Shown: in pieces, positions 26,366-56,064 of the stretch
Numbering within the stretch: position 1 is the stretch's first letter
How the letters are laid out: every line of letters begins with the position of its first letter
Assembly: GCA_963783725.1 (NCBI GenBank)
Contig: CAWAOJ010000002.1
Coordinates: 1,789,279-1,853,278 of the forward strand
DNA length: 64,000 bases
DNA from: an uncultured Chloroflexia bacterium
Lineage (GTDB): Bacteria > Chloroflexota > Limnocylindria > QHBO01
Reading direction: 5' to 3'
Program-made: the position numbers and the translations under genes
Notes under the pieces: model-generated
The model's input: the letters and a program-made list of their open reading frames with translations, nothing else
The model's database searches: none
Told to the model about the DNA's origin: nothing

Positions 26366-26369
26366 GGGT

Positions 26370-30690: not shown

Positions 30691-30786
30691 TCGGTGCCGT
30701 CTTGAGGCTTCAGTCTTGGCGGGATGCAGTCTGGGTTGTAGTTCCAGAGGTCTGCCGACGGCTTCCGGCTTTCGGGTGCGGCTTTC

Positions 30787-31722: not shown

Positions 31723-31760
31723 CAGCCGTGTGCTCGTGGGCACGACATCGCAAGATACAC

Positions 31761-33697: not shown

Positions 33698-34395
33698 AGA
33701 ACGATCGGGTTCACGACCTCGAGCAGATACGGCAGACGTATGGCCGGTATGCGAGAGAAGGCCGGTCGCGGCTGTGGGACGTGTCGAACCCTGGCTACGC
33801 GCGCATGATGCGTGATCGAGACGCCGCGCTGGTGACGCTGCTAAGAGAGGCCCTCGCGGAGGCGCGGGGCCGCGTTCTGGATCTCGGCTGCGGCGACGGG
33901 CGGCTGGCCGATCTTGCGCGCGCGGCCGGACTGCAAAGTCGCGGCTGGACAGGAGTCGATGTCGATGCCGCGAGTATCGCGACCGCGTCGACAGCGTGGC
34001 CGTGGGCGAGGTTCGTTGAAGCTTCGGCCGATCAGCTGCCCTTCGGGGACGCATCCTTCGATGTGATCGTGGCGACGACGCTGTTCTCGTCGCTGCCGTC
34101 GCGCGCAATGGAGGGAGCAGTGGCCAGCGAGATACGACGCGTGCTCTCGAGGAACGGCACACTGCTCTGGTACGACTTGCGCTATGACAATCCCGGGAAT
34201 GCGGCCGTGCATGGCCTCTCGGTGAGTCGCGTCTCAGAGCTGTTTCCTGGCTGGCTGGTCGATCTCAGGCCGCTCACGCTGCTGCCGCCTCTCTCACGCC
34301 GGCTGGGTCGGGCGACACCGGTCCTGTATCCAGCGCTGCACGCTCTCCGCATCCTGCGCTCACACCTGATCGGGCGTGTTCGTCCCAGCGGTTAG
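33695..34395 (+). CDS. Class I SAM-dependent methyltransferase
   Basis: GTG start overlapping the previous stop (GTGA). VLDLGCGDGRLADLA...FDVIVATTLFSSLP motifs. Confidence 0.7.
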
Positions 34396-34563
34396 GCGCG
34401 GCGTCGATGCGCTTCACCGCGCCCCGGCTCCATTCCCTACCTCGCCGACCAGACCATGTCGGTCGTCGGTCTCGCGTAAGCCTCGGTACCTTGACGATCG
34501 AGACTGGGCGGGCGTCATTAGGCGGGCACTGCAGCTGCGGCCTGACCGCTCGTTGATCCTCAG

Positions 34564-36084: not shown

Positions 36085-36101
36085 TACGCAGATGTCTCAG
36101 C

Positions 36102-40462: not shown

Positions 40463-40519
40463 TACCGGCGTTCGACGATGCTGACGCGAGGCGGCTGTTA
40501 CCGGGTCTGATGCACAGGC

Positions 40520-41386
40520 CTAGCGTTTTGGCCCTTGTGACAGTTGGGACGTGGGCGGGTTTCGCGTTCCGACGAGGAGCCATGAAGGAAAGTAAGGGAC
40601 CCAGCGTGGGAGTGCGAAGAGCACCGCAATCGCGGCCGCGGTCCACGCCTCGGGCCGCCTGCGGAGCCACCACGTGGCGCCCAGCGCTGCGATCACAACA
40701 AGCCACGACCATGGGGTCGGAATGGGTGCGTCCACCAGCGAGCCGGCGTCGAAGGGGTAGTTGCGCAGATCGAACAGGAGGACCGGTGCGACGAGCGCGG
40801 CCGTCAGCATCAGCGTCCCCGCGACCCGCCACCACTGGCGGCGCACGACGTAAACCCAGACGTACAGCACGGGAACGGCCTTCAGCGAGGCCGCCGCCGC
40901 GATCCACAGCGGACCACTGCGCCGATCGACGCCCCGGACCAGTGCCGCAAGCATGAGCGGTTGGACGTTGCCGCTCGACGCGGTCCGGATCAGCACGGCA
41001 CCCAGCAGCACGCCGAGGAGGGTCCCGGCCAGGCTGCGAGTGCGGAGCGCCGGCCAGACGCAGGCGATGGCGGCCAGGACGAGTACCGCGCCCCAGCCGA
41101 AGCGCACGACATCGTGCGGTAGGAACGTCAGCGGGATCCACAACGCGGCGAACCAGGGGCTGTATCGGTAGATGTCCGGGTCTTCCAGGTTCGGGAGCGG
41201 CGGGTAGAGCGGCCCGCCCTCGCGCAGTCGCAGCGCGGCATTCCAGTAGGCGTCCGAGTCCTTCAGCCACCAGTTGGTGCCCGGTCCCGTCAGCGCGGCC
41301 AGTGCAAACCCCACGACCAGGCCGATGGCGATCGCTTGCGCGAAGCGGATCGCGAGCCGCCTCACGTTCATCAGGCGCGTACCCAC
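40520..41386 (-). CDS. DUF2029/GT87-like polytopic glycosyltransferase (subfamily B)
   Basis: DIYRYSPWFAALWIPLTFLP, GNVQPLMLAALV, LKAVPVLYVWVYVVRRQWWR. Confidence 0.65.
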   Translation of the reverse strand: MGTRLMNVRRLAIRFAQAIAIGLVVGFALAALTGPGTNWWLKDSDAYWNAALRLREGGPLYPPLPNLEDPDIYRYSPWFAALWIPLTFLPHDVVRFGWGAVLVLAAIACVWPALRTRSLAGTLLGVLLGAVLIRTASSGNVQPLMLAALVRGVDRRSGPLWIAAAASLKAVPVLYVWVYVVRRQWWRVAGTLMLTAALVAPVLLFDLRNYPFDAGSLVDAPIPTPWSWLVVIAALGATWWLRRRPEAWTAAAIAVLFALPRWVPYFPSWLLVGTRNPPTSQLSQGPKR

Positions 41387-42867
41387 ACCGCGGCGACGTC
41401 ATCGACGTAGACGGGCCTCCACTTCGCCGAAGCGTTCAGCCAGGCGCCGAGCGGCGAATCGGGCGGAAAGAGGACGAAGTCGATGGCGTACCGGTCGAAG
41501 GTCGTCTGTGGATCGATGCTCAGGCCGATGGTCCGAACGTATTCCGCGATCACTCGGTCGCCGTAGACGTCGGCCCTTCCGTCGATGAAGATCGGCTGAT
41601 CCGGCCGTTGCAGACCCAGGTAGCCGCCCCACTCATATCGGTTGAAGACGCGATCACCGGGGTCGTGCGCACGGATCCAGTCCACGGCTGCCACCGGCTG
41701 TTCTCGCGCGGTCTCCCGTGCCTGCGCGTCGGGTAACGAACGGGCGAGTGCCAGCGCCGTGCCGAGCGCGAGCACCGCGATCACCAGTACGACGAGCAGT
41801 GGGTCGGATCGCGGTCGGGTCATCCGTTCCAGCGTTGAAGCAGCCTGCTGCCCCAAGCGTGACTTCGAGACAGCCGGCCCGAGATTCACGGCAATGATCG
41901 CGGTGCCCACGGGACCGAGGATCAGCAGGAACCGGACGGCCATGAACGCCATCAGCGTGAGCCCGACGAGGATGAGCACGTCGGCCGTTCGCATCCGTCG
42001 CCACGCGAATGCGACCGTCGGCAGTACCGCGACCATGACAAACGCGACGAGCAGCTGCCCGAAGAGCGAGTCAAGGCGTGCGGGCTGCCATTCGCCAACG
42101 GCAGCCTTGAGCGTCGTCAGCTGCAGCGTGTCGAGCGGATAGCGGTAAATGTCGATGCCATTCGGATTCAGCGCGAGCACGGCGGCCGCGACGACAAGCG
42201 CGACGGCGATTGCGGCGATGTGGTGCCATGCAAGGGCCTGGCCGATCACGCCCGGGCGTGCGTGGTCGAGCATTTCCCCAACCACGACCGCGCCGCCGAG
42301 CAGGAAGAGGAGCGGCCAGCCGGCGTGCAGGTTGACCCAAGCCAGCGCCAGGACCGGCAGCCATACAAGGGTGGACGTCCGGCGTCGAGCGAGATAGTTC
42401 CACAGCACGTATAGAGTCAGTGCGCTGCCCAGCAGGTCGAAGACCTGAACTCGCACGCCGAGGGTCGGTCCGGCCAGCACCAGGCCGGCGGAGAGCCAGA
42501 CAACCCGACTGAGCCAGCCAATCGATGGCGATCGCACCGCCATGGCGCGCCACAGGACCGCGAATCCGGCAACGGCAAGGCCAGCGAAGGCAAGCGACAG
42601 GAGCGTCTCGCCCCATGCGCCAAGGCGCGCCACCAGGGCCAGAAGGACGTTCGCCCCCCAGTCCTGGCTGGTCCACGGACGGCCTGCGGCGGTGAGGCTC
42701 CAGGTATCCATCGCGGGAACCCAGCCGCTTGTAAGAACCGCATCACCGGCGCGGATGTGCCACCAGACGTCTGGATCGACCAGCGGCCAAGTCGCCCGCG
42801 GAGTGAGCGCAGCGCCAAAGAACGCGGCGATGACCGCGGCCGCCGACGACAGTCGAGGAAGCGTCAC
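41371..42867 (-). CDS. Uncharacterised polytopic membrane protein (intact paralog of 19330..20796), putative glycosyltransferase
   Basis: 498 aa. Blocks WSLTAAGRPWTSQDWG, LAWVNLHAGW and NRYEWGGYLGLQRPDQPIFIDGRADVYGD match the frameshifted plus-strand gene at 19330. Confidence 0.55.
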   Translation of the reverse strand: MTLPRLSSAAAVIAAFFGAALTPRATWPLVDPDVWWHIRAGDAVLTSGWVPAMDTWSLTAAGRPWTSQDWGANVLLALVARLGAWGETLLSLAFAGLAVAGFAVLWRAMAVRSPSIGWLSRVVWLSAGLVLAGPTLGVRVQVFDLLGSALTLYVLWNYLARRRTSTLVWLPVLALAWVNLHAGWPLLFLLGGAVVVGEMLDHARPGVIGQALAWHHIAAIAVALVVAAAVLALNPNGIDIYRYPLDTLQLTTLKAAVGEWQPARLDSLFGQLLVAFVMVAVLPTVAFAWRRMRTADVLILVGLTLMAFMAVRFLLILGPVGTAIIAVNLGPAVSKSRLGQQAASTLERMTRPRSDPLLVVLVIAVLALGTALALARSLPDAQARETAREQPVAAVDWIRAHDPGDRVFNRYEWGGYLGLQRPDQPIFIDGRADVYGDRVIAEYVRTIGLSIDPQTTFDRYAIDFVLFPPDSPLGAWLNASAKWRPVYVDDVAAVWVRA

Positions 42868-43764
42868 GAGCCGGCAGTGGTTGGAGCCGAGTCCTCACCG
42901 CTCTCCGCAATCCCTGGCAGGATGAAGGTCGTGTCGTACAGGAAGAGCCGCGGGAGCGCCAGCACCACGGCGGCCCCGGTCGCCAGCCAGGCGTAGCGAG
43001 AGCGCCGCAACGCGAGAAACAGGGCGACTGCGATCGCGGCTGCTGCTACCAGCGCCCATAGCACCGGGCTGATGTTCGAGAGGGAGTTCGACCCTCCAAA
43101 GTCGGTTACCAGTGGCGGGAGCGGGAAGAGGAGCATCGGCGCGGTGAGGATGGCGGTGAGGGCGAGCGTCGCGCTGGCGCGCCACCACTGCCGGCGGCCG
43201 ACATAGACGATCACGTACAGCAGCGGCACCGCCTTGAGCGACGCCGCCAAGCCGATCCACAGCGGTCCGCTGCGGCGCTCGACGCCCCACACCAGCCAAG
43301 CCACCATCAGCGGCTGGACGTTGCCCGACGCCGCCATGCCGATCAGCAGACCCGCCATCAGGATCGCGAGCGGCAGGGCCCGCCTTACCAAACGCACGGA
43401 TCACCGGAATCACCGCCGCGATGGCGGCGATCACCAGCAGCAGCGACCAGCCGACGTCCACGATTTGTCGCGGCAAGTACGTCAGCGGGACCCACAGGGC
43501 CGCGAACCACGGCGCGTAGCGGAAGACGGTGTGGTCCGTCGTCACCGCCGTGACCGTGTACGGATTCCCGGTCGCCCGCCACTGCTGCGCGGCGGTCCAG
43601 TACACGTCCATGTCGATCAGCTTCCAGCCACCTCCGATCGCCCATCCACTGACGATCGCGAGGGAGAACGCGGCCAGCAACGCCACGCTGAGGAGCCGCG
43701 CCGCCCGGATCACGATGGGTCGCGGAGCTCGCGTATCGGTCAACGACACGTCAGGCGCCTTCAT
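42864..43764 (-). CDS. DUF2029/GT87-like polytopic glycosyltransferase (subfamily B); apparent frameshift near 43390
   Basis: N-terminal half with TVFRYAPWFAALWVPLTYLP in ORF 42895..43764. C-terminal half (ASGNVQPLMVAWLVWGVERRSGPLWIGLAASLKAVPLLYVIVYVGRRQWWRA) in ORF 42864..43397. Confidence 0.6.
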
Positions 43765-45094
43765 CGGTCAGTCCGTCCGTAACCGATATGGCCGCGACCG
43801 CGCAGCACAGCGCGCCGATGATGAAGTAGTAGTAGTTCGCGAATGCCTGCTTGTTGAACGCGAAGAAGAAGAGGTACACCACCCCGACCGTCGCCGCGAA
43901 ACCCGACGGAGTCCGAGCGGCGCGGACGATGGCGAGGGCGCCGGCAGGCACGATCGCGGCGAAGCCGAGCGCGGCGCCGAGCGTCGGATTGTCCAGCCGA
44001 AGCCACGCTGGGTAGCTGAGTGCATCGGCCCGGAACGGCTGCTGTACCTGGAGCGCAATGAGGCTGCGCCAGAATCCGCCTGGATCCCACACCAGGAACG
44101 GAAGCGTGATGACGCCGGCGACAGCAACCGCCATTGCTGCGGCCCTGATCAGGGTGGCGCTGCTGCGCGGTGCCGGCACGAGCAGAGGTGCCATTGCCAG
44201 CACGAGCACCAAATGCTGTTTGACGGCGATGAGCAGGCCGAGGGCGACCGGAAGCAGCGCACGGCGCCAAATGCCGATCGACAACGCGATCACCAGCAGC
44301 AGCACGATCAGCGGCTCGGTCCACGCCTGCGCCACCACGAAGAGGCTGCGTGGCGTGAAGAGGAAGAGCACGGCCGCGCCACGGGCGATCGGCCCCGGTT
44401 GGAGCCTGGACATCAGCCATGCTGCAAGAACCACCGAGGCGAGTCAGTGCGTAGCGGACGTCGCCGAGCAGGTAGCCGGGAGGGTCAGGAGCAGGCTGAG
44501 CGGAGGATACGGGAGCCCGAACGTCAGATGATCGCCGACCATCGTCTCGGGTGCATAGAACGGCGAGCCCGGCCCGAACACATTGGGCATCTGCACGCTG
44601 TATGGGTCGACCCCTGACAGAAGCGCGTGGCTCCCGATCTGCTGGAACCACCACACGTCGTTCGTCGGCACGCCCGAGAGCGCGATAACCCAGAGCGCGG
44701 AAATCGTCCAGAAGCCGTACAGGGCAAGGCGCCGTGGGCCACGCAGCACCGGGCGGTCGGTGAGCTCGAGAAGTGCCAGCGGCAGGCTGACAGCGACCCC
44801 GACGCGAAACGGGACCAGCGTGGCGGCCAGTTGGAAGGGATCAGCGGGCGCCGGTGGCCAGATAAAGAGGAGGCCGAACTGCACCACGAGCGCCATGCCG
44901 AGGGCGAAGCGGACGTTGCGCTCTCGAATCCGGCGCCAGGAGGGACGTGCCAGACCCACGACCGCCAACGGAATGGCGAGCGTCAGCATCATCAGCGCGC
45001 CACCGTCCAGGCGCCCCAGGTTGAGCTGAACTCCAAACCCGATGAGGAGGGCGGCCAATGTCAAACACCAGCCGGTCGACCACCGGTCATTCAC
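43751..45094 (-). CDS. DUF2029-related polytopic membrane protein (divergent GT87-like); apparent frameshift near 44440
   Basis: ORF 44444..45094 (…LSGVDPYSVQMPNVFGPGSPFYAPETMVGDHLTFGLPYPPLSLLLTLPA) continues in ORF 43751..44434 (AWLMSRLQPGPIARGAAVLFLFTPRSLFVVAQAWTEPLIV...). A third-frame linker carries GYLLGDVRYALTRL. Confidence 0.5.
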
Positions 45095-46107
45095 GCCCGA
45101 TGAGTCCCGGTGGCTCCGGTCGGGTCTGCCGCCGCCCTGCGCAGGTTGACTCCGAGCATGAGCGCGCTGATCCCGCCGCCCAGCGCAAGCGGTACCAGTG
45201 TTAGCGCATGCACGAGGATCGCCAGCGCGAGTGCCGGCGCGGCCGCGATGCCGACCGCGGCGGCGGCGCTGGATGCGGCAAGTTCGAACGTGCCGACGTA
45301 GCCCGGGGCCGAGGGAATGATCGTCCCCAGTGACGCGACCGCCAGGATGACGAGTGCCTGCGCCGGGCGCAGCTCAACGCCAAGCGCCCTCCCCGCCAGC
45401 AGGTACAACAGGGTATCGATGCTCCACGCGGTCGCCGTCAGCGCGACCGCCCCCGCCAGCGCTGAGCGATCGGTCGCGGATGCGACGCTGAGAAAACGCT
45501 TCAGCAGATGTGCCGTTGCGCCGGTCGTCAGATGAAGTCGCTCGCGTAGCCATCCGCCGCCGGCAAGCAGGCCCCCCAGGATGATCACCGCGACGCCCGC
45601 AACCACGCCAGTTCCGGCGACCAGCCATCCCGGAGCGTGGAGCGACTACCGCCGCCAGGAAGCCGAGCAATGCGAGTACGGCTGTATCCACGATGCGCTC
45701 GAGCGCGACTGACCCGATGCTTTCCGGTACGCCGATGGTCTCGCGGCGGGCGAGCACCAGCGCCCGAACGGCCTCGCCGAGCCGCGCTGGAAGCAGGATG
45801 TTGCCGAGGTAGCCCACCAGCAATACCGGCACGAGTCGAGCCGTGGCGGGCCGTCCAGCGGCCTGTGGCAACAGCAGCCGCCACCTGGCAGCGCGGACGA
45901 CGATGCCGACCGCCACTGCGACCAGAGCGGCGAGGAGCCCCCCGGGTTGGCGTTGAGGACGAGCCCGGTTGCGGCGCTCACGTCGACAGACCGCACGATT
46001 GCCACGAGCGCCACGCCGCTCAGCGCCACGCCGCCGAGGGCCATGAGCACCGTGCGGATATGGCTCGTCACGGCGGTGAGTATGCGGTGTGGGAATGGCA
46101 GGGCCAT
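45091..46107 (-). CDS. UPF0104 / LPG-synthase-TM (flippase-like, AglD2-type) membrane protein; at least 2 apparent frameshifts
   Basis: Pieces in three ORFs: 45646..46107 (MALPFPHRILTAVTSHIRTVLMALGGVALSGVALVAIV), 45374..46231 (LLAALVAVAVGIVVRAARWRLLLPQAAG...LVPVLLVGYLGNILLPARLGEAVRALVLARRETIGVPESIGSVALERIVD), 45091..45606 (C-terminal TM half). Confidence 0.55.
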
Positions 46108-46157
46108 GGCCGGATACGCCTATTGCCGGCCTTGCCGGCCTTGGTAATCTGCCTGCC

Positions 46158-46931
46158 ATGACCCCGGAAACCGACGATACGCACCCGCCGCGTGTCGTCG
46201 TCGTCATGCCCGCGTACAACGCCGCGCGCACGCTGCATCAGACGTACGCCGACATTCCGCACGAGCTCGTGGATCGGATCATCCTGGTGGACGACGTTTC
46301 CCGCGACGAGACGGTCGAGATCGCACGCCGCCTCGGTCTCGAGGTTGTCATCCACCGCCAGAACCTTGGGTACGGCGGTAACCAGAAGACGTGCTATGAC
46401 CATGCGCTCGAGGCCGGTGCCTCGGTAGTGGTCATGCTCCATCCCGACTACCAGTACGATGCGACCCGGATTCCGGCGCTCATTGCGCCGATTCTGGACG
46501 GTCGGGCGGACCTCGTCCTCGGCAGTCGATTCCTTGGTGATCCGCTCGCTGGCGGCATGCCGAAATGGAAGTGGATCAGCAACCGGTTCCTGACGATCGT
46601 GGAGAACATGGCTTTCGGGTTGGGCCTCTCGGAGTACCACACCGGCCTGCGCGCGTACAGCCGTCGCCTCCTCGAGGCGATCCCCTACCACCGCAACAGC
46701 AACGACTTCGTCTTTGATCAGGAGCTGATCGCGCAGGTCGTGGCCGCCGGCATGCGCCACCGCATCGCCGAGATCCCGGTGCCCACGCGTTACTTCGACG
46801 AGGCGTCGTCCGTCGGCTTCCGCCGGAGCGTGGTGTACGGGCTCTCGACGCTTCGTGTCGTGCTTCGCTACCTGCTGCATCGGCTTCACCTGCGCCCCAC
46901 GCCCAAGCTCAGGCCGAACCTGCCCATCTAG
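46158..46931 (+). CDS. GT2 polyprenyl-phosphate sugar synthase-like glycosyltransferase (Ppm1/DPM1/GtrB-type)
   Basis: VVVVMPAYNAARTL...ILVDDVSRDETVEIARRL...LHPDYQYDATRIPALIAPILDGRADLVLGSRFLG is the DPM-synthase-like architecture. Divergent from the UPF0104 gene. The raw ORF extends to 46089, but the likely start is MTPETDD. Confidence 0.75.
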   Translation: MTPETDDTHPPRVVVVMPAYNAARTLHQTYADIPHELVDRIILVDDVSRDETVEIARRLGLEVVIHRQNLGYGGNQKTCYDHALEAGASVVVMLHPDYQYDATRIPALIAPILDGRADLVLGSRFLGDPLAGGMPKWKWISNRFLTIVENMAFGLGLSEYHTGLRAYSRRLLEAIPYHRNSNDFVFDQELIAQVVAAGMRHRIAEIPVPTRYFDEASSVGFRRSVVYGLSTLRVVLRYLLHRLHLRPTPKLRPNLPI

Positions 46932-47788
46932 CGCCGCATGCGCATCGGTACCAGCTCGAGTGCTGCCATCAGAAGGTAGTAGGGCAGGACGTACGGGCTG
47001 GCGGCTAGCCCCGCGAAGCCAATGCGGCCGCGCACGGTGAGCCAGACTCCCAGCGGCACTCCCATCAGCAGCCACCATGAGCCGATGAACCGCGACGGCC
47101 CGATGTTGAAGTCGCTGCCGATGTCCGCTGGGCTGTCCACCAGTCGCCCGATCCACTCCGGTCCCCATCCGACGAGCAGCACCGCCACGGCGTGGGCGGC
47201 GAAGAGCACGACCGCCCGCCAGCGCCACTCGGGATGCTGCCACAGCAGCCACGCGGCGAGCGGCAGCATGAGTGGTCGCGGGATGAGGAGCGTGGCCACG
47301 AGGAACGCGCCGATCGCCCACGGCTTACCGAGCAGCGCCCAGTACGCGACCACGACGATGAAGATCATCGCGTTGCCGCCCAGCAGGTCGACGATGAACG
47401 GCCACGACAGGCCGACAACCAGCGCCAGGCGCCAGTTGCGAAAGGCCCCCAGGGCGATGATGTGGAGGCCCGCCCAGCCGAGCGCCCCGATTGGGCTGAT
47501 GATCCAGAACAGCCAGGCGGCGACCGGGGACCAGCGAAATGCGGAATGGGTCGCCTCGATCAGGGTCGCGTATGGGTTGAGGCCCCCGGCGATCCGCTCC
47601 CCGGCGTTGGTGACGATGTTCCAGTCGATCGACTGGCGATAGTCGAGCCAGCCGGCGATCGTCCACGCCGAGTACCACGTGCTGGCGATGGCGAGCGCCA
47701 TCCACAACGCGGCAACGCGGAGCGACGGCAGGCGCCAGCTCCTCGCGGCGACCCGTTCCTCGACGGTCGCTGTCAGGTCAGGCGCCAC
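46928..47788 (-). CDS. DUF2029-related polytopic membrane protein (divergent GT87-like)
   Basis: 286 aa and about 8 TM. SAFRWSPVAAWLFWIISPIG block in the position of the YRYSPWFA motif. Confidence 0.5.
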   Translation of the reverse strand: MAPDLTATVEERVAARSWRLPSLRVAALWMALAIASTWYSAWTIAGWLDYRQSIDWNIVTNAGERIAGGLNPYATLIEATHSAFRWSPVAAWLFWIISPIGALGWAGLHIIALGAFRNWRLALVVGLSWPFIVDLLGGNAMIFIVVVAYWALLGKPWAIGAFLVATLLIPRPLMLPLAAWLLWQHPEWRWRAVVLFAAHAVAVLLVGWGPEWIGRLVDSPADIGSDFNIGPSRFIGSWWLLMGVPLGVWLTVRGRIGFAGLAASPYVLPYYLLMAALELVPMRMRR

Positions 47789-48710
47789 GGGCGGCCTCGG
47801 ATCTTGGGCGATGAAGCGGCCATGGCCATTCCCGCATCCGCTGGAGCGGTGGCCACGCGATCAGCGGGACCGCTCCGAGCAGGAGGGTGATGCTGTTCTC
47901 CCACAGCACGGGCAGTCCAATGGTCGCGGCGACCGGGACTGTCCAGCGCCACCCCCTGAGGCCGCCGATCACCGCGACGACCAGCGCGACCGGAAGCCGA
48001 ACCATCAGCGTCAGACCGAACAGACGCGGCGGCTCGACGGTATTGCTGCCGAGTATCCGGAACCAGTCGAACCACAGCTGCGGCGACAGCGCGAACGACA
48101 CGAGCACGATGGCGGCCGTCGTGGCGAGCGCCGTCGCGAGAGCGCGCCATTCTCGCCGCGCCGCGAACCACGCCAGCCCCACCCCGGCGGTGGACTTGGT
48201 GAGCAGGACGGCGGCCCAGCTGCCCGGATAGCGGAAGCCGAGTGCGATCGCCACCGCCAGCAGCAGGTGGACGTTGCCCGTCCCCACGTCGGCCCAGACC
48301 TGTGGCACCAGGAGCAGCAGCGCGGCCGCGACGGGCCCGACCAGCCAGACGAGGCACCCCAGCAGGATCGCTTCCCAGATCGCGTAGAACACGGGCCAGG
48401 GCAGCAGGTGCGCCGCGGCCAGTGCCTGTGCGGCGGCCGGCGAGTAGAGGAACGCGTTCAGCTCTCCGACGACCGCGCCGGAGTACAGATGATCCAGGCT
48501 CAGCGACCAGTAGGCGTGGGCGTCGATCGCCGAAAAGCGGATGCCGTCATTGAGGATGTACTGGACCAGGAAGAGCCACGCCCAGCCCAGGAAGACGAGC
48601 GCCGCAACGCTTGCCAGGTCACGGGTCAGCCGGATGGCGCGCGGCAGAGGCGCGGCTGCCTCAGACAGGGACATCCGCTGAGCCGGCCTCGGGATGCATG
48701 TGCGGGCCAT
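47778..48710 (-). CDS. DUF2029/GT87-like polytopic glycosyltransferase (subfamily A)
   Basis: AFLYSPAAAQ, GNVHLLLAVA and WFAARREWRAL motifs, parallel to 20711 and 51080. Confidence 0.6.
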   Translation of the reverse strand: MARTCIPRPAQRMSLSEAAAPLPRAIRLTRDLASVAALVFLGWAWLFLVQYILNDGIRFSAIDAHAYWSLSLDHLYSGAVVGELNAFLYSPAAAQALAAAHLLPWPVFYAIWEAILLGCLVWLVGPVAAALLLLVPQVWADVGTGNVHLLLAVAIALGFRYPGSWAAVLLTKSTAGVGLAWFAARREWRALATALATTAAIVLVSFALSPQLWFDWFRILGSNTVEPPRLFGLTLMVRLPVALVVAVIGGLRGWRWTVPVAATIGLPVLWENSITLLLGAVPLIAWPPLQRMREWPWPLHRPRSEAARGA

Positions 48711-49809
48711 GCGCGTGAAGGCCGCAGCTTCGCCTGTCGGCGACCTTCCGATAGACGCGACGACCGATGGCGGCGATCGGCGGCAATCGGAAAAGCGCCG
48801 CCCACAGAAAGCTCACCGGCAGCACGTATGCAATGGCCACCACGCCGTCATAGCCGCTCCGCCTTCCTTGGTGCGTGACCACCTGAAGGGCATGGAGCGC
48901 CTCGGCCTCGCTGATACCCAGTCGTTCGCGGGCGACCGCGTCCGATCCTGGAACCAGGCGGAGGGCATGCAGCCAGTCCAACCGCGTGGCCCACGTGATC
49001 CAGCTGCGGCAGAACGAGCACTGGTCATCCCAGACGACCGCCATGGACCTCGGCAGCGGGTCAAGGAAGGCCAGGTACAGCGGCAGCATGAGCGCTCCAA
49101 AGGTGATCAGCTGGCTCGTCGGCTCGAGCCAGATGGCAATCCCGGTGTGCAGGAACAGCCCGACCACGAATGCCGTCTGCCGCCAGCGTGGCAGCCACAG
49201 CGCCACGGCCAGGAATGCCTCGCACAGGACCCCCACGATGGAAAGCACGAACAGCAGCTGGAAGTTCCGCCAGTCCTGTGGCAGGGCGAGCAGACCGCCG
49301 TCGCGAAGGTAGCTGCCGACGACGCTTCCCGACAAGTACGTGGGGTTGAGCTTCGCCAACGCCGCGAAGCCGTACACGAGGGACACCTGCCAGCGCAGCA
49401 GGGCGATGGGCCAGCCTGCTGGCCCGCGTGACGAGCCGCGGCCGGCGCCGAGAGAAATCGCGATGAGGAAGGTCGCCAGCAGGAGAAGATAGAGATGGTT
49501 GGAATAGAGCTGCTGATCAGCGGCCAGGGCGAGCACAAGAGTCAGCACCAACGCCACTGCCGCGGCCCGGGTCGCAAAGCCGAGTGCGAAGAGCGCCGCC
49601 GCCGGCAGCCACACGGCGGCAAGCGCCAGGTAGAAGAAGGCTGGAATCTCGAGCCCGGCGAGGTATGGCACCCGCAGGACGGACGGGTCGGCGAGCCTGG
49701 CGAGCACCGGTGCCTCCTCCAGCCAGACGAGGAAGCCAGCCAGACCGATACCGATTCGCAGCAGCCCAACGGTCCGCGGATTCACGTCGGCCCGGGCCAC
49801 TTTCGTAAC
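48661..49809 (-). CDS. HTTM-domain (vitamin-K-dependent gamma-carboxylase-like) membrane protein fused to a C-terminal DCC1-like thiol-disulfide oxidoreductase (DUF393, CxxC)
   Basis: N-terminal LLRIGIGLAGFLVWLEEA...YLALAAVWLPAAALFALGF...LLLLATFLIAISLGAG is the HTTM pattern. C-terminal MAVVWDDQCSFCRSWITWATRLDWLHALRLVP is DUF393/DCC with a CSFC redox motif. The raw ORF extends to 49890, but the likely start is a GTG at about 49809. Confidence 0.6.
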   Translation of the reverse strand, partial: VTKVARADVNPRTVGLLRIGIGLAGFLVWLEEAPVLARLADPSVLRVPYLAGLEIPAFFYLALAAVWLPAAALFALGFATRAAAVALVLTLVLALAADQQLYSNHLYLLLLATFLIAISLGAGRGSSRGPAGWPIALLRWQVSLVYGFAALAKLNPTYLSGSVVGSYLRDGGLLALPQDWRNFQLLFVLSIVGVLCEAFLAVALWLPRWRQTAFVVGLFLHTGIAIWLEPTSQLITFGALMLPLYLAFLDPLPRSMAVVWDDQCSFCRSWITWATRLDWLHALRLVPGSDAVARERLGISEAEALHALQVVTHQGRRSGYDGVVAIAYVLPVSFLWAALFRLPPIAAIGRRVYRKVADRRSCGLHAHGPHMHPEAGSADVPV

Positions 49810-49817
49810 GCTTCGCG

Positions 49818-50138
49818 TCAGCTGCACGGCAGCACGTCCTTGGTGTTCTTGAGGGTGACGACGATTGCCTCCACCGCCGCGTCGAGGCACAGCTTGTCGT
49901 GGAGCGCCGGTATGTAGTCCGCCTCAGCCCGTCCGCGGGCGACGCGGTTCTCGACCTCGACCGCAGCTTCGGAGCCGTCCTCGTAGCGCACAGTGACGGA
50001 CGGAAGCTCCGTCAGGGCCGTGTACATCTGCCAGCCGAATCGCGCAGGCCGCGGCTGCAGGAGGCCGTAGGCAGGCACAGCCAACTGCACCGCCAGCCAG
50101 ACAGCGATGAACGCGATGACGCGCCGGTCAGGGGGCAT
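49818..50138 (-). CDS. Hypothetical small protein with N-terminal TM/signal anchor
   Basis: 106-aa ORF sitting exactly between the GT87 stop and the HTTM gene. N-terminal hydrophobic segment VIAFIAVWLAVQLAVPAY. No recognisable domain. Confidence 0.35.
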   Translation of the reverse strand: MPPDRRVIAFIAVWLAVQLAVPAYGLLQPRPARFGWQMYTALTELPSVTVRYEDGSEAAVEVENRVARGRAEADYIPALHDKLCLDAAVEAIVVTLKNTKDVLPCS

Positions 50139-50141
50139 TGG

Positions 50142-51053
50142 TCACGACCGCGCCGGTGTGGGCGACTCGCGCGGTCCGCGTATCGCGCTCGGCGGAGGTG
50201 TTCTCAGCGGTACGGCGACCTGCAGATAGGTCACGTCGTACAGGAAGAAGCGCGGCAGCGCCATCGCCACCGTGACCGAGGCCGCGAGCCACGCCCACCG
50301 CGTGCGGCCCAGCCGAAGCGTCACCGCGGCGAGCACCACGACGGCAAGGGCGTACAGCGCCGGCCAGGTGATGAGCAGCCCGGCGAAACCTGCTGAGGTG
50401 ACGTAATTCGACAGGTCGTACAGCAGCATCGGCGCGACCAGGGCCGCGGTGAGCAAGCCGGTCACCACGGCCCTGGCCCACTGGCCTCGGCCGACGTAGA
50501 CGAGAGCCAACAGGATGGGAAATGCCTTGAGGGAGGCGGCGACGGCGATCCACAAGGGTCCGGACCGTCGCTCGACCCCCAGCACCAGCAGCGCAACCAA
50601 CAGCGCGTGGACGTTTCCGTTGGCGCTGATACCAATCAGGATCGGCCAGAAGAAAGCGACCTCGAGCCAAGCCCGACGCTGTACCAGCGGCAGCATGGCG
50701 GCGCAGCTGGCTGCCACGAGAATCGCGGACCACAGCATTCCGGCGATCGTCTGTGGGAGGAACGTGAACGGCAGTGTCAGCCAGGCGAACCACGGCGCGT
50801 ACCGGTACACCTCGGACGATTCGACGTCGGTGACCGGTGGATACAGCGTGCTGCCGTCGCGCAGGCGCTCCGCCGCTGACCAGTACGCGCCAGCGTCTGC
50901 CATGTGCCACTGGGTGAACGCCCAGTACAGGTCAGTGATGCCGATCGCGATCACCACCGCGAGCGCTACGACCCGTGCCAGCCGCCAGATGCGGGGGCTG
51001 ACGGTCCAGGTCGCGAGTCGCTGCTGATGTGCCCGGAACATGGCAGACGCCAC
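50142..51053 (-). CDS. DUF2029/GT87-like polytopic glycosyltransferase (subfamily B)
   Basis: EVYRYAPWFAWLTLPFTFLP, GNVHALLVALLVLGVERRSGPLWIAVAASLKAFPIL. Confidence 0.65.
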   Translation of the reverse strand: MASAMFRAHQQRLATWTVSPRIWRLARVVALAVVIAIGITDLYWAFTQWHMADAGAYWSAAERLRDGSTLYPPVTDVESSEVYRYAPWFAWLTLPFTFLPQTIAGMLWSAILVAASCAAMLPLVQRRAWLEVAFFWPILIGISANGNVHALLVALLVLGVERRSGPLWIAVAASLKAFPILLALVYVGRGQWARAVVTGLLTAALVAPMLLYDLSNYVTSAGFAGLLITWPALYALAVVVLAAVTLRLGRTRWAWLAASVTVAMALPRFFLYDVTYLQVAVPLRTPPPSAIRGPRESPTPARS

Positions 51054-51079
51054 CGTACCCTAACGATGAAGGCCCCGGA

Positions 51080-52099
51080 TTAGTCCGATCGTCCCAGCGG
51101 GATCGATGGTTTCCCGCTCAGTTGCGCTCGCTTGCGGGCGCGCGCCCGTTGGAGGTCGGACCTCGCCAATGGAATGGAGGCGGCCATCAGGATCGGGCTG
51201 TTGTACCAGATGACTGGCAGCGACAGCCAGATCGCGATCGGGACGAGCCAGCGCCAGTCTCTACGTGCCGCAACGGCGATCAGCAACAGGCCGGCCGGCA
51301 GCCGCACGAGCAGGGAAGCCCATGCCAGCAGCTGGTCGGGATCCGTGGGGACCGGCGGGTTGGAGGCGATCCACCTAGTCCATTCGACCCAGGCGTTCGG
51401 CCCGAGCGCGAACGACACGATCACGACGATGCCCGTGGTCGCCAGTGCAACCGCGAGGCTGCGCCACTCGCGCCGGACCGCGAACCACACGAGGCCGATG
51501 ACCGGTGTCACCTTCGTCAGGACCATGAAGGGCCACACCGCCGGCGCTCGGAATGACACCACCAGACTCGCCGCGAGCAGGACGTGGATGTTCGAGATCA
51601 CCAACTCGTTGAACAGCCCCACGACTGGGATAAGGAGGAGCATTACACCCAGGATCGGACCGACCAGCCACAGCAGCGCGGCGATCTGCGCGAGCGTCCA
51701 GAGCATCGCGAATGCCTCGAATGGCACTCCACCAAGGGACGCGATGGCCTGTGCGAAAGCCGGCGAATATTGGAAGGCCTGGTCGCCTGGGCGTGCGCCA
51801 GGCGTGTACGGCGCGCTCGCGTTTTGGGCCGCGGTCCAATAGACATGCGCATCCACCGCCTCTGCACCGCCTCTGTGGGCATACACGAATGTGGCCAGAA
51901 GCGCCAGGGCCGCAAGCTTCGTCAGCAAGTGAAGGAGGTGGAGTGCGTGCACCAGCCATCGGCGTTCCCTCAATCGAGCGCAGCGATTGCGCGCATCGCC
52001 GATCAAGACGGGAACGGGGTGGGCACGCCACGAACCATCGAGGCGTGACGATAGCACGCGAATCCTTGCCCGCCGTCTGTAATCACAGTCGCGCAGCAT
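51080..52099 (-). CDS. DUF2029/GT87-like polytopic glycosyltransferase (subfamily A)
   Basis: FQYSPAFAQ, SNIHVLLAASL and WFAVRREWRSL motifs. The raw ORF extends to 52228, but the likely start is MLRDCDY. Confidence 0.6.
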   Translation of the reverse strand: MLRDCDYRRRARIRVLSSRLDGSWRAHPVPVLIGDARNRCARLRERRWLVHALHLLHLLTKLAALALLATFVYAHRGGAEAVDAHVYWTAAQNASAPYTPGARPGDQAFQYSPAFAQAIASLGGVPFEAFAMLWTLAQIAALLWLVGPILGVMLLLIPVVGLFNELVISNIHVLLAASLVVSFRAPAVWPFMVLTKVTPVIGLVWFAVRREWRSLAVALATTGIVVIVSFALGPNAWVEWTRWIASNPPVPTDPDQLLAWASLLVRLPAGLLLIAVAARRDWRWLVPIAIWLSLPVIWYNSPILMAASIPLARSDLQRARARKRAQLSGKPSIPLGRSD

Positions 52100-52130
52100 C
52101 TCAAGCGGGCCGCCCGCTACGCTTCCTTCC

Positions 52131-53419
52131 GTGAACCCGAGATCACGCACCGCCGTCCTGGGAGCCGGAGCGCTCGGTCTGACGGCGGCACTCCGACTCG
52201 CCGAGCGCGGCGACCGCGTCACCGTCATAGAGCGCGAGCCGCTTCCCGGTGGGCTCGCAGCCGGCTTCGAGCTGGAACCTGGCGTGTGGCTCGAGAAGTT
52301 CTACCACCACCTCTTTCGCTCTGACACGCGCGCCATCGCGATGATCGACGAGCTTGGCCTGAGCGACAGACTCGAGTGGCATGCGCCGGTGACGGCGACG
52401 CTGTCCGGTGGTGCGCTGCACCAGCTGGACTCACCGATGTCGCTCCTGCGCTTCTCCCCGCTGTCGCCCATCGCTCGGGCGCGGATGGGTATGACGCTCG
52501 CCGTTCTGAAGGCCATGCCGAATGCGCGTCTCATCGAGGGCCGAACGGCGGCGCGCTGGCTCGAACGATGGATGGGGCGGGACGCATACACCACCGTGTG
52601 GGAGCCGTTGCTGCGTGGAAAGTTCGGCACGGCGGCGCCGGAGATTGCGATGCCATGGTTCTGGGCGCGTGTTCACGATCGCACCCAGCAGCTCGGGTAT
52701 CTCCGTGGCGGCTTTCAGCAGCTGTACACGGCGCTCGCCGAGAGGGTCGAGGAGGCGGGCGGCGAGGTTCGTCTCGGCGAGTCGGTGACGAGCATCCGGT
52801 CTCATGCTGGATCCTTGACGAGTGGAGACGACAGCGGGCGCCGAAACGTTCGACAGGGTGGTTTCGACCCTTCCGAACCGCCTCACCGCGCGCCTGGCGC
52901 CGCAGCTGCCCGACGGATGGAGACGGCGGTACGAGTGGGGCAGTGCCTACGGCGCGCACTGCCTGATCCTCGCGCTGGATCGGCCGCTGACATCGGCCTA
53001 TTGGATCAACATGAACGACCCGGGTTACCCGTTCATGGCCCTCGTGGAGCACACGAATTACGTGCCGGCGTCCGACTACGGCGGTCGCCACCTCGTGTAC
53101 CTGGGCAACTACCGACCGATGGACGACCCGCTGCTCTCGGCCTCGAAGGAATCGGTGCTCGGCACGTTCTTGCCGCACCTCGCCGGCCTGAACTCGGCCT
53201 TCGACGCCTCCTGGGTCACGGACTCGTGGATGTTCTCCGCCCCATTCGCCCAGCCGATCGTGACCGTCGACTATCGCGACCACGTCCCGCCATTCACGAC
53301 ACCCGATTCCGGGTCTCTTCCTCGCGAACATGTTCCAGGTGTATCCGCACGACCGGGGGCAGAACTACTCCATCGAGCTTGCGGAACGGCTCGTCCGCCA
53401 CCTCGGTCAGGGAAGATTG
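52131..53419 (+). CDS. FAD/NAD(P)-binding oxidoreductase (amine-oxidase/phytoene-desaturase-like fold); at least 2 apparent frameshifts
   Basis: N-terminal dinucleotide-binding RTAVLGAGALGLTAALRLAERGDRVTVIE. The middle of the gene is in ORF 52822..53625. The C-terminus IPGLFLANMFQVYPHDRGQNYSIELAERLVRHLGQ is back in the first frame and ends 53419. Confidence 0.55.
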
Positions 53420-53577
53420 ACGTCGTAACCGGGCGGTTGGACCTCGATCTTCGGCTGGATCATCGGGCCGCCGATGGGGCCGAGCTGGTAATCGACCAGC
53501 GGCAGCTCGTGTCCGGTCGCTTTCCACGCGACGGCGAGCAGCAGCACGACGAGGACGGCGCCGAACAGGAAGCGCAT
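53408..53577 (-). CDS. Small (56-aa) predicted membrane protein
   Basis: ATG at 53577, MRFLFGAVLVVLLLAVAWKATGHELPLVDYQLGPIGGPMIQPKIEVQPPGYDVNLP, stop at 53408. Below the ORF-track size cut-off. Found by hand translation. Confidence 0.3.
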
Positions 53578-53598
53578 TCCCGCAGACTACGCTCCGAG

Positions 53599-53748
53599 TC
53601 AATCCGCGGCCGGCGGCTCCTCTGATGCGTGCTCGACATCCGCGGGTGTCGTCGTCACCGTGCGGTTCTGGGCTCGCTTGGCGTAGAAGTAGACGAACAC
53701 GAGCATCGCCACGAGAAGAAAGATGATCAGGAAGAATTCGTTCGGCAC
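53599..53748 (-). CDS. Small (49-aa) predicted membrane protein
   Basis: GTG at 53748 preceded by GAGGA. VPNEFFLIIFLLVAMLVFVYFYAKRAQNRTVTTTPADVEHASEEPPAAD. In tandem with the previous small ORF. Confidence 0.3.
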   Translation of the reverse strand: MPNEFFLIIFLLVAMLVFVYFYAKRAQNRTVTTTPADVEHASEEPPAAD

Positions 53749-53853
53749 GATGTGTCCTCGCTTGCCGGCCGCACGGCGTGCGGCTCGCCGCGCATCTATG
53801 GTGCGTGGCCACCGATCGAGATATGACCCATTCGGCCCATGCTGCGACGAGCT

Positions 53854-54600
53854 CTACCCCGCGAGCGCGACCCTCACCCGCGGCGTGAAGAGCAGCGCCA
53901 GCACGTAGAGCACCGCGACCAGCAGCGCCAAAGCCTGGTAGCCGGTGATCAGTGCCAGGTACTCGAGCAGGCCACCCACCATGGCGCCCAGCAGGTTCGC
54001 GGCGAAGCCGAGGTTCGAGGTGTCCACGTCGCGGAAGCGCTGCGCAAAGACGAGGTTCGCCGCGAAGATCGGCGTGAAGTAGACGAGGACCGCCGCCAGC
54101 AGCCGAGGCCCGAACGAAAGCCCCAGCAGCGCGTGCGGCGGGATGAGGAAGCCCACGATGACCGCCGCCACGAGCAGCGCGTAGAGGACGGTCGGCCGCG
54201 GCAGGCGGGTCCGTCGCACCACCTCGATGGCGGCCAGGACCGAGAGCAGCACGCCGCCGAACACCAGCGCGTTGACGAACCAGGTCGTGCCGAACAGCAG
54301 CGCGAACTGGACGACGCTCTTCGTCTCGAGCAGCAGGAACGCGGCTCCCATGAAGAACAGGTCCGTGTACCGGCGCATGCCGCCGGAAGGGTCCGCCCGC
54401 GCTGCGCACCAGCACCAGCGAGGCGAGCAGGATCAGCGCGATCGCGACGCAGGTACAGCGTGTGGGATCCCGCGGTCGCGCAGGTACGGGAAGGGGTAGT
54501 CGTCGGCGACGCGGGCGCGGGGGCGTCGCGGCCACGTGCGGTGGGTGCACGCCGCAGCTGACCGCATCGGGCTCGAGGCCGATGGTGAGGACCGCCATGT
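53854..54600 (-). CDS. Polytopic membrane protein (TM bundle resembling the N-terminal repeat of the SpdS-like membrane proteins); apparent frameshift near 54385
   Basis: ORF 53854..54378 (MRRYTDLFFMGAAFLLLETKSVVQFALLFGTTWFVNALVFGGVLLSVLAAIEVV...) is preceded in another frame by ...CVAIALILLASLVLVRSAGGPFRR. Either a separate gene or the C-terminal part of the upstream SpdS-like gene. Confidence 0.4.
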
Positions 54601-54639
54601 GGCGCACGGTCCCGACGCTGTCGACGCACGGCGCATGGC

Positions 54640-55869
54640 CGAAGGCGGCCGCCAGCGTCGCCGACGTACCGATCGAGCAGCCACGACTCCCGGTAGTAGT
54701 TGTACATGGCGAACGCGCCGCCGGGCTTCAGGTGCCGCCGAGCGCTGTCCATCGCCTCGCGCGTGAACAGGTAGCTCTCCAGTCGCAGCGACGACTGGCC
54801 CTGCACCAGCGTCAGCGAATCGGGCAGCGCGAAGAGGATGAGGTCGTACTTCGCATCGGTCTGCTCAAGGAAGGCACGGCCGTCGTTGATGTGCACGCTG
54901 ACGCGCGGGTCCTGGTACGGCTCGTCGGGATGCAGCTGCTGCCCAAGCTGGTACAGGCGCGGGTCGATCTCGACCGCGTCGACGTGCTTCGCGCCCTGCG
55001 GCAAGCGCGATGGCGACGTCGGTGCCGCTGCCCGCCCCGACGATCAGCATGTCGTCCAGCGCGGACGCCGCTGGCGCCGCTGGTACGGGATGAAGTAGAC
55101 CGGCGACTTCTTGCGCCGCTCGGCCACGGAGTGCATCGCTGATGTGGGATGCCGTTGACGTCGAGCTCGTAGGTGCCGCGTTCCGCCGGCACCGGCGTCG
55201 ACTGACACCTTGTAGTACGGCGACCAGCTGTAGTTGGGGACGATCGTCTCGCGCGCCAGCATGAAGACCAGCGCCGACGACCGCCGCGACCTGGAGCACC
55301 CGCCAGCCCCGCCGCTGAAGCAGCAGGAAGAGGATGCCGACGACCGTCCCCCACGCGACCGGCGGCGCCCACAGGAACGACAGCAGCGAGAACGCGCCGA
55401 TCCCCAGCACGCTGCCGGTGATGTCGAGCCGGTACGCGTCGAGCGGCTCGAACTCCACGAACGTCCGCGCCACGCCCTCGCCGATCATCGCCATCACCGA
55501 CGCCACCGCCAGGAAGATGACCGGGAGCGTGATCCAGGTCGGCAGGCCGCTGGGCGTGAAGGTGCCGAAGTAGATGATGTCGCTGCCGCTGCGGTCGATC
55601 TGGACGGGGAAGACGAGCACGAAGCCGACGAGCAGGGCCAGCACGACCGGCGCCCAGCGGAACGTGTCGTGCCTCGCCCGCCCGCGCAGGAAGCCGACCC
55701 CGATACCCAGGAAGCTCCCGAGCAGCACGAAGTTCGAGAAGTACGACAGGTAGACGACGTTCGACCCCAGCCACCGGATCAGTGCCAGCTCCACGAACAG
55801 CATCGAGGAAGCTGAGCAGCACCAGCCGCAGGCGGGGGTCCATCGCGGCGGATGGTACGGCATGGCCAC
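54640..55869 (-). CDS. Membrane-anchored spermidine-synthase-like protein (TM domain + aminopropyltransferase-like domain); apparent frameshift near 55040
   Basis: ORF 54865..55869 has the TM bundle (MLFVELALIRWLGSNVVYLSYFSNFVLLGSFLGIGVGF...) ending in the SAM-binding MLIVGAGSGTDVAIALAAG. It continues in ORF 53949..55004 (AKHVDAVEIDPRLYQLGQ...INDGRAFL...YDLILFALPDS...GGAFAMYNYY). Similar to the C-terminal domain of 36102..38363. Confidence 0.55.
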
Positions 55870-56064
55870 GCACGGGAGCGGTCGCGACCGTATCGGTCCG
55901 ATTCCGACCCCTTAACTCGGCGACCGACCGCCGCGACCCTCTTACGGGTCCCCTGACGACCCGGTAACGCCCAACCAGGCCACCCGCGCGCCGTTAAGGG
56001 GTCGTCGTCGGACCCTTACCGCCTGCGCCCAGCGAACCCCCCCGGCTGTGCGGCCGGCCGCCGC

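Follow-up and report, generated by a model that had tools for sequence, protein, structure and literature searches.

A 106-residue membrane protein and an HTTM-DCC fusion protein as a possible split relative of the vitamin K-dependent carboxylase in a Limnocylindria bacterium

The vitamin K-dependent carboxylase GGCX is medically central, and next to nothing is known of what its bacterial relatives do. What such a relative might do is the question raised by two adjacent genes on the minus strand of a 64,000-nucleotide stretch of DNA, hereafter the window, from an uncultured Chloroflexia bacterium of the Limnocylindria (GenBank assembly GCA_963783725.1, contig CAWAOJ010000002.1, positions 1,789,279 to 1,853,278). 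One of these genes codes for an HTTM membrane domain fused to a DCC1-like domain, and the other for a membrane protein of 106 residues. On balance, it seems probable to us that the two products make up a GGCX-like enzyme split into two subunits, dependent on menaquinol and O2 and acting on a substrate at the outer face of the membrane, with a cytoplasmic DCC domain possibly recycling the quinone. The locus would then point to a minimal, naturally split form of GGCX, in which the segment comprising the ninth transmembrane helix (TM9) and the loop LL9 is carried by a protein of its own, about 100 residues long.

The longest open reading frame (ORF) that holds the fusion spans 48661..49890 on the minus strand and counts 409 residues from its first possible start. 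Domain membership was assigned by a Pfam score above the gathering score, together with the DxxCxxC motif in the case of DCC. The frame contains an HTTM domain (PF05090; 52.7-53 bits vs. a cut-off of 27.7), in which residues 36-249 of the 409-residue numbering cover profile positions 4-232 of 259, and a DCC1-like domain (PF04134; 56.1 bits vs. a cut-off of 27.8) at residues 285-387 of the same numbering. The fusion of the two domains, with its CSFC motif, had been proposed by an earlier model reading of the same DNA (the sequence-only reading) and is confirmed by these searches. That reading had placed the start of the gene at 49809, where the codon is GTT and not a start codon; the likely start is instead the GTG at 49827, which is preceded at a distance of 9 nucleotides by an AAGGA and at which an identical database protein (P0001, 388 residues, from a 2.24-Mb contig) begins. 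The gene and its parts, numbered in the 388-residue protein, are as follows.

48661..49827, minus strand: HTTM-DCC fusion gene, 388 residues (Pfam; identical database copy P0001; AlphaFold2 model; Foldseek).
49066..49785, minus strand: HTTM membrane domain, residues 15-254, eight helices (Pfam; model helices; profile alignment).
48730..49038, minus strand: DCC1-like thioredoxin-fold domain, residues 264-366 (Pfam; beta-alpha pattern in the model).
49009..49020, minus strand: CSFC motif, within WDDQCSFC (sequence; alignment).
48724..48726, minus strand: third invariant cysteine of the DCC region, C368 (alignment of 30 homologues).

An alignment of 30 fusion homologues shows D267, C270, C273 and C368 to be invariant in the DCC region, and the HTTM domain to be devoid of conserved cysteines. 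The AlphaFold2 model of the fusion, with a predicted local distance difference test (pLDDT) score of 90.7, has eight membrane helices; the DCC domain begins a few residues past the eighth, and its DxxCxxC motif sits at the start of a helix. The sequence-only reading had allowed that the fusion might be the product of an indel. This is ruled out, since both domains are present in all 120 listed of the 153 fusion homologues found (327-402 residues among those listed), and since the two genes are found together in 40 loci.

The second gene lies directly upstream of the fusion gene and overlaps its start.

49818..50138, minus strand: small partner gene, 106 residues (ORF; family alignments; AlphaFold2 model; upstream of the HTTM gene in 40/40 loci).
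49818..49827, minus strand: 10-nucleotide overlap of the small-gene stop (49818..49820) with the GTG start of the fusion gene (sequence).
50064..50126, minus strand: transmembrane helix, residues 5-25, proposed equivalent of GGCX TM9 (AlphaFold2 model; aligns with GGCX 361-381 by hhalign and HMMER).
50022..50051, minus strand: RPARFGWQMY motif, residues 30-39, proposed equivalent of GGCX LL9 (invariant columns; GGCX alignment; shuffle control).
49824..49889, minus strand: stretch from C84 (49887..49889) to C105 (49824..49826), both cysteines being invariant in 47 family members.

That this ORF, with its transmembrane anchor, may be the partner of the fusion protein had already been suggested from the sequence, and the association has proved stronger than supposed. 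The loci compared comprise 38 from a scan of one genome per species and three obtained through protein look-ups; 38 are non-redundant, 21 of them carrying the fusion and 17 an HTTM protein only. A member of the small family is found directly upstream, on the same strand, in 40/40 loci having upstream DNA, across several phyla, and a start codon of the HTTM frame lies between -13 and +8 nucleotides from the stop of the small gene in 38/38 non-redundant loci. The overlap measures 4 nucleotides in fifteen loci and 10 nucleotides, as in the window, in eight. From the sequence, the 10-nucleotide overlap suggests that translation of the fusion gene is coupled to that of the small gene.

Fusion-type loci occur in Chloroflexota/Limnocylindria, Bryobacteraceae and Acidimicrobiia. 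The 17 HTTM-only loci, in which the HTTM protein (about 250-300 residues) has no DCC domain and the partner is kept, are carried by Pyrinomonadaceae, Actinomycetota, Roseiflexaceae, Longimicrobiaceae, Nocardioides sp. Root240 (L039) and actinobacterium LLX17 (L037); a family-specific profile found no separate DCC gene within 10 kb of these modules. Since the partner is kept in the 17 loci devoid of DCC, the constant unit consists of the small protein and HTTM, and the DCC domain is optional. When neighbouring genes were clustered by BLAST, HTTM and the small protein were the only ones common to the fusion and HTTM-only sets. A search of a plasmid collection gave one haloarchaeal match with the same two-gene layout (L042, Halobaculum megaplasmid NZ_CP126159.1, 190360..192397), in which a 254-residue transmembrane protein overlaps a 427-residue “DUF393” protein by 11 nucleotides. 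The 254-residue protein has no Pfam match and bears a transmembrane and W-x-(K/M)-F segment resembling the small family; the membrane half of the 427-residue protein is too divergent for the Pfam HTTM model and has no N-H motif, and the lysine is kept.

The small ORF represents a real gene family, one for which Pfam holds no model. It gave no match at E ≤ 10 in Pfam or NCBIfam, Pfam SdpA included, and 47 family members gave none against the Pfam models DUF5819 (at E ≤ 1) and SdpA. Seven close homologues of 98-119 residues were found; in a search of 1.84 billion cluster representatives, 537 match the family profile at E ≤ 1e-3 and 242 at E ≤ 1e-10. The best 150 of these 537 are nearly all stand-alone proteins of about 95-130 residues, and none of the 150 is fused to HTTM. 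W36 and M38 are invariant in the family alignments. The AlphaFold2 model (pLDDT 88.8) consists of a helix at residues 5-25 followed by a short, beta-rich ectodomain of about 65 residues, and C84 and C105 probably form a disulfide on the outer side of the membrane.

The evidence that relates this pair to GGCX comes in two parts, the HTTM core and the small partner. A profile of the 30 fusion homologues matches the PDB chains of human GGCX with E=1e-16, and a broader one, to which HTTM-only relatives were added, aligns with GGCX 53-310 at E=3e-26, the GGCX sequence used for these comparisons having been verified against the PDB chains. The top 16 Foldseek matches of the AlphaFold2 model of the fusion are all GGCX structures; query-normalised TM-scores are 0.50-0.57 and the root-mean-square deviation is about 4-5 Å, for matches spanning 266-313 columns. 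The alignments bring the following residues of the fusion into register with GGCX.

49351..49353, minus strand: K159, invariant, paired with GGCX K218 (alignment with PDB GGCX chains).
49495..49518, minus strand: DQQLYSNH, residues 104-111, of which N110 and H111 pair with GGCX N159 and H160 (invariant columns; alignment).
Residue E203, invariant, paired with GGCX D263 (broader profile alignment).
Residue Y164, Phe in most homologues, paired with GGCX W223 (alignment).
Residue F243, paired with GGCX F299 (alignment).

The equivalents of the GGCX catalytic residues are invariant or near-invariant in the fusion family. In GGCX, K218 is the general base that deprotonates the quinol, D263 is its helper and W223 stacks on K218, while N159 and H160 hold the substrate carboxylate and F299 forms the CO2 pocket (PMC12647623; PMC13486548). 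A D263E mutant of GGCX retains 25% activity (PMC13486548), and the GGCX pocket takes up the isoprenyl tail (PMC12647623). What the fusion shares with GGCX is the HTTM fold and the equivalents of K218, D263 (as Glu), N159, H160, F299 and W223 (as Tyr or Phe); there is no conserved cysteine in the fusion at the position of GGCX C99. Because the residues that act on the quinol in GGCX are conserved, quinone-linked chemistry is plausible. The sequence-only reading had proposed a redox or quinone-linked step coupled to glycan assembly; the quinone part of that proposal stands as plausible, and the coupling to glycans is possible only in the Chloroflexota lineage, as discussed below.

GGCX has nine transmembrane helices; the end of TM8 lies in the cytosol, and a cytosolic loop (310-360) leads from there to TM9 (PMC12647623). 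The small protein was compared with TM9 and LL9 because the model of HTTM-DCC has eight helices and GGCX nine. The partner profile aligns with GGCX 359-423, i.e., TM9 plus LL9 (YGYSWDMMVHS): run with hhalign against GGCX 357-523, the family profile scores E=6e-4 with a probability of 28%, and HMMER at maximum sensitivity against GGCX 48-523 returns the same alignment at E=1.6e-4. The real score was reached by 1/2000 full shuffles and 2/2000 block shuffles (P about 1e-3), and by 0 of about 4,488 unrelated ORFs from related loci. When the small-family profile was run across the whole PDB, GGCX was not matched at E ≤ 10, so that significance attaches only to the targeted comparison. W36 pairs with GGCX W399 and M38 with M401, the residue whose backbone hydrogen-bonds K218 and the bound bicarbonate in GGCX, where LL9 covers the vitamin K pocket (PMC12647623). 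Segment 374-418 of GGCX has been described as essential for carboxylation and is missing from the viral HTTM-only “epoxidases” (PMC13486548). In the fusion, this segment (the end of TM9 plus LL9) is likewise not in the HTTM-DCC chain, and the partner appears, from the alignments, to supply the last membrane helix and the active-site lid that are absent from the HTTM gene. The models give a total of nine helices as in GGCX, eight in the fusion and one in the partner. The pair would differ from GGCX in being divided into two chains at the cytosolic loop between TM8 and TM9, and in ending the fusion, at that cut, with an added DCC domain that is cytoplasmic by homology.

In the enzyme that we propose, the HTTM core would provide eight helices with a quinone pocket and a catalytic lysine facing the outside of the cell membrane, and the 106-residue partner would contribute the ninth helix and the W-x-M loop, whose GGCX counterpart lies over the quinone and touches the catalytic lysine. 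The small and probably disulfide-stabilised ectodomain of the partner would take the place of the large lumenal domain of GGCX. The pair would bind menaquinol, which K159 would deprotonate with the help of E203; reaction of the deprotonated menaquinol with O2 would yield menaquinone epoxide and a strong base, and an acidic substrate at the outer face of the membrane would lose a proton to this base and might then be carboxylated. The DCC domain would be attached to the eighth helix at its cytoplasmic end, in the place of the cytosolic loop of GGCX, and its CxxC and third cysteine could convert the spent quinone or epoxide back into the quinol using cytoplasmic thiol reductants, a recycling role that would correspond to the job of VKOR in animals. 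This topology, with DCC in the cytoplasm and the partner ectodomain outside, follows from homology to GGCX, whose TM8 ends in the cytosol, and the invariant cysteine pair of the partner fits the outside location. In Chloroflexota, the substrate may belong to a cell-envelope glycoconjugate pathway, which is the weakest step of the scheme. A bolder version of the scheme, which we regard as improbable, is a VKOR-independent vitamin K cycle contained in two genes, in which the small protein supplies TM9 and LL9, the “carboxylase signature” of GGCX, in trans, a cytoplasmic DCC domain is the reductase of menaquinone epoxide or quinone and the enzyme of Limnocylindria-like Chloroflexota carboxylates or otherwise base-activates a cell-envelope glycoconjugate or lipid made by the neighbouring GT87 enzymes. 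If true, such a cycle would be the first biochemical role of the DCC/DUF393 family and would define the minimal carboxylase core.

A number of observations weigh against a split GGCX-like enzyme. N290 of GGCX has no clear counterpart in the fusion, the substrate-binding Y395 pairs with Ala32 of the partner, and the pair is devoid of the lumenal clamp, the jelly-roll and C-terminal domains and the propeptide site. GGCX-style carboxylation of protein glutamates is unlikely because of the change of Y395 to Ala, the lack of a clear N290 counterpart and the absence of the propeptide clamp and jelly-roll. GGCX is the nearest relative of the pair in structure and mechanism. The pair is not an orthologue of GGCX: it has no clamp, no jelly-roll and no C-terminal domain, it has lost Y395, and segment 374-418 is not part of the same chain. 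The alignment of the partner with GGCX is weak, as its hhalign probability indicates, and a Foldseek search of the PDB with the AlphaFold2 model of the partner returned zero matches. Neither the partner nor its 46 relatives match Pfam DUF5819 at E ≤ 1, the family that partners HTTM-DCC in Firmicutes, as in the Melghirimyces system considered at the end of this text. The heterodimer of the 106-residue protein with HTTM-DCC is a presumed one. The cytoplasmic location of the DCC domain is likewise assigned by homology to the GGCX topology, and a cytoplasmic CxxC would lie far from a quinone head group in the outer leaflet. No third conserved neighbour or substrate gene is common to the HTTM-only loci; the link with GT87 is absent outside Chloroflexota and could be inherited synteny. 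Finally, four neighbouring genes in the window are interrupted, the fusion and small genes both being intact.

The pair belongs to a run of six minus-strand genes arranged head to tail at 46928..52228, with gaps of at most 26 nucleotides or overlaps between them. The other members of the run are given below.

51080..52228, minus strand: GT87 gene (Pfam PF09594, 44 bits).
50142..51053, minus strand: GT87-like gene (23 bits vs. a cut-off of 25; 43% identical to a paralogue that passes it).
47778..48710, minus strand: GT87 gene overlapping the 3′ end of the fusion gene (Pfam PF09594, 39.7 bits).
46928..47788, minus strand: 286-residue protein with several transmembrane segments, last of the run (no Pfam match; no BLAST similarity to the GT87 paralogues).

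The sequence-only reading had described the fusion gene as embedded in a tandem GT87 array. This description holds for two of the flanking genes by Pfam, with a third near the cut-off, but the fourth (46928..47788) is not demonstrably GT87; relatives of its 286-residue product recur in other loci (L011:16800-18443, L014:17532-19001, L002:15276-16253). No promoter-like or terminator-like signals beyond chance break the six-gene run, and Rfam and tRNA scans gave nothing informative. The survey of gene neighbourhoods that had been recommended for HTTM-DCC fusions, carried out with a profile built from Pfam-verified paralogues, finds a GT87 gene at most 3 kb away in 14/21 fusion loci vs. 0/17 HTTM-only loci. 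Among 120 neighbour ORFs of the fusion loci, 19 match Pfam GT87 and 10 an amine-oxidase-type flavoprotein, and neither family is among the 25 most frequent in the 98 neighbour ORFs of the HTTM-only loci. By BLAST clustering, the fusion loci additionally share GT87 (15 loci), a PRK07233 flavoprotein (12) and SpeE-like proteins (7). The GT87 association is real but specific to the Chloroflexota/Limnocylindria fusion clade, and is not a general property of the module. Within Chloroflexota, the adjacency survives gene-order rearrangement at 45-65% protein identity, and this persistence mildly favours a functional link in that lineage.

On a wider scale, the module is surrounded by an envelope-glycan cluster of about 32 kb (~24650..55900), which holds Bac_transf, DegT, a Wzx-type flippase, four GT2 genes, methyltransferases, PMT_2-like and weakly STT3-like GT-C proteins, at least six GT87 paralogues that are mutually 29-51% identical, a polyprenyl-phosphate-sugar-synthase-like GT2, a flippase-like LPG_synthase_TM gene, a PRK07233 flavoprotein and two SpeE-like membrane proteins. 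The PRK07233 gene (52131..53625, plus strand; 434 bits to the NCBIfam “hypothetical protein” of that name) codes for a CrtI/HpnE-like flavin adenine dinucleotide (FAD) oxidoreductase. It lies within 6 kb of HTTM-DCC in 12 fusion loci (e.g., L003:6691-7965), nearly matching GT87, and its product might act on an isoprenoid (polyprenol or quinone) of the same pathway. Membrane-anchored proteins resembling spermidine synthase bracket the GT87 array (36102..38363, plus strand; 53854..55869, minus strand); one of them is fused to an MFS-like domain with several transmembrane segments (753 residues), and similar proteins occur in 7 related loci. The G+C content is 0.62-0.65 at 28000..40000, which spans the Wzx, GT2 and methyltransferase part, vs. 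0.67-0.73 elsewhere, and this stretch may have been acquired separately. Two long ORFs overlap on opposite strands at 17647..20796 (plus strand, 1049 residues) and 17659..19854 (minus strand, 731 residues).

The interrupted genes near the module are that of a 448-residue membrane protein (43751..45094, minus strand), with an in-frame TGA at 44444..44446; the LPG_synthase_TM-like gene (45091..46231, minus strand), with two frame switches; the PRK07233 gene, with frame switches near 52811-52819 and 53303-53313; and the SpeE-like gene at 53854..55869, with several frame switches. No obvious homopolymers are present at the frameshift junctions, and the interruptions could be due to assembly indels or to gene decay.

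These surroundings, together with the features of the two proteins, allow other explanations to be weighed. Given that at least four neighbouring genes switch frame or contain in-frame stops, the fusion or the small ORF might itself be thought to result from an indel, through misassembly or as a decaying pseudogene. We give this hardly any credence: the lengths are normal (388 residues vs. 327-402, and 106 vs. 98-119, in homologues), and the shared two-domain architecture and the recurrence of the gene pair already refute it. A further explanation would make the module a self-contained housekeeping unit for the quinone pool or oxidative stress, DoxX-like in spirit and without a dedicated substrate, the GT87 adjacency being synteny of one lineage. 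It would suit the spread of the module over many phyla and a haloarchaeal plasmid, the weak DoxX match of HTTM (E=0.033), the lack of GT87 genes beside the HTTM-only modules (0/17) and the fact that no third gene recurs beside the module outside Chloroflexota. We nevertheless deem it unlikely: the equivalents of N159, H160 and F299 and the LL9-like loop are invariant or nearly so, which argues for a second substrate besides the quinol, and the Chloroflexota adjacency outlasts the shuffling of gene order.

The glycan genes, for their part, might indicate an accessory of GT-C glycosylation, with HTTM binding polyprenyl-phosphate sugars or a lipid-linked glycan as a scaffold, a flippase aid or a lipid modifier, and the nearby CrtI/HpnE-like flavoprotein acting on the same isoprenoid. 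The tight GT87 run, the polyprenyl-phosphate-sugar-synthase-like GT2, LPG_synthase_TM and PRK07233 close by, the recurrence of the flavoprotein and GT87 in 12 and 15 fusion loci, respectively, and a GGCX pocket that accommodates an isoprenyl tail (PMC12647623) are all in keeping with such a role; however, conservation is highest around the counterparts of K218 and D263, which take the proton from the quinol head group, and the module is free of any glycan genes in 17 loci, and we see little chance that this account is correct. A similarly small chance is left to a system that forms or isomerises disulfides, like DsbB or the VKOR-thioredoxin fusions, in which DCC would oxidise or reduce the cysteines of exported proteins, such as the cysteine pair of the partner itself or enzymes of glycan assembly, the electrons going on to a quinone bound in HTTM. 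In favour of it, the beta-alpha pattern of the DCC domain resembles that of thioredoxin, its invariant CxxC opens a helix, and the partner has two invariant cysteines. An established precedent exists in the VKOR-thioredoxin fusions, which join a quinone-binding membrane domain to a thioredoxin-like domain. Such a system is, however, hard to reconcile with a DCC domain that lies on the cytoplasmic side by homology to GGCX (PMC12647623), with an HTTM domain that has no conserved cysteine, unlike DsbB and VKOR, and with the 17 loci that keep the partner and its cysteine pair without DCC, no separate DCC gene having been detected within 10 kb.

The split GGCX-like enzyme, the reading that we prefer, would give a concrete annotation to a large family (537 representatives, no Pfam model) that always accompanies one HTTM clade. 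The split also makes it possible to test which parts of GGCX constitute its catalytic core, and a candidate role, the recycling of quinone or epoxide, can be put forward for the widespread DCC/DUF393 domain. Genetics and biochemistry are feasible because two cultured organisms, Nocardioides sp. Root240 and actinobacterium LLX17, carry the pair in its HTTM-only version.

Several known systems place the pair in context. SdpB of Bacillus subtilis, which we take from its Pfam assignment to be an HTTM protein, is one of them. SdpA and SdpB are both needed for SdpC to be processed into the SDP toxin (PMC6818787), and in the sdp system, as in YitP/YitO, the HTTM gene directly follows a smaller partner gene, as it does here. 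On the other hand, SdpA/SdpB have no DCC domain and share their operon with the gene of their substrate, sdpC, whereas no substrate gene recurs beside the module described here; the small ORF also differs from SdpA in giving no match to its Pfam model (E ≤ 10). MloH, the aspartyl alpha-carboxylase of malonomycin (Law et al. 2018, as cited in bioRxiv 10.64898/2026.08.19.745780), is also a bacterial HTTM enzyme, one that performs a vitamin K-type carboxylation on a non-Gla substrate; there, the HTTM domain and the region equivalent to the partner are in one chain, the gene belongs to a natural-product cluster and no DCC domain is reported.

The giant-virus HTTM proteins that resemble vitamin K epoxidases adjoin VKOR, keep K218 and have Glu at the position of D263, and they have been interpreted as carrying out quinol epoxidation for chemistry other than protein carboxylation (PMC13486548). 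A truncated HTTM domain, the kept K218 and the Glu in place of D263 are points in common with the fusion. The viral proteins are without segment 374-418, nor was a small ORF found there that would provide it, whereas the small ORF of the window appears to do so; the redox partner is VKOR or a desaturase there and DCC here.

Among described systems, the nearest is that of Melghirimyces thermohalophilus, for which an AlphaFold3 model of a DUF5819 protein with an HTTM-DCC1-like protein resembles the whole of GGCX (bioRxiv 10.64898/2026.08.19.745780). With this model, SdpB (PMC6818787) and MloH at hand, the statement of the sequence-only reading that bacterial HTTM proteins are functionally uncharacterised does not wholly hold, and the novelty of the present proposal is limited because the 2026 preprint had already put forward the general idea for a DUF5819 partner. 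The two systems have in common adjacent genes, an HTTM and DCC1-like fusion and a partner made of a transmembrane helix at the N-terminus and, after it, an ectodomain, and in the Melghirimyces complex the partner helix matches a helix of GGCX in the AlphaFold3 model. They differ in the size of the partner, which at 106 residues is about half as large here (DUF5819 alone spans residues 35-192 there), and in phylum; moreover, the partner family described here also accompanies HTTM proteins that have no DCC domain.

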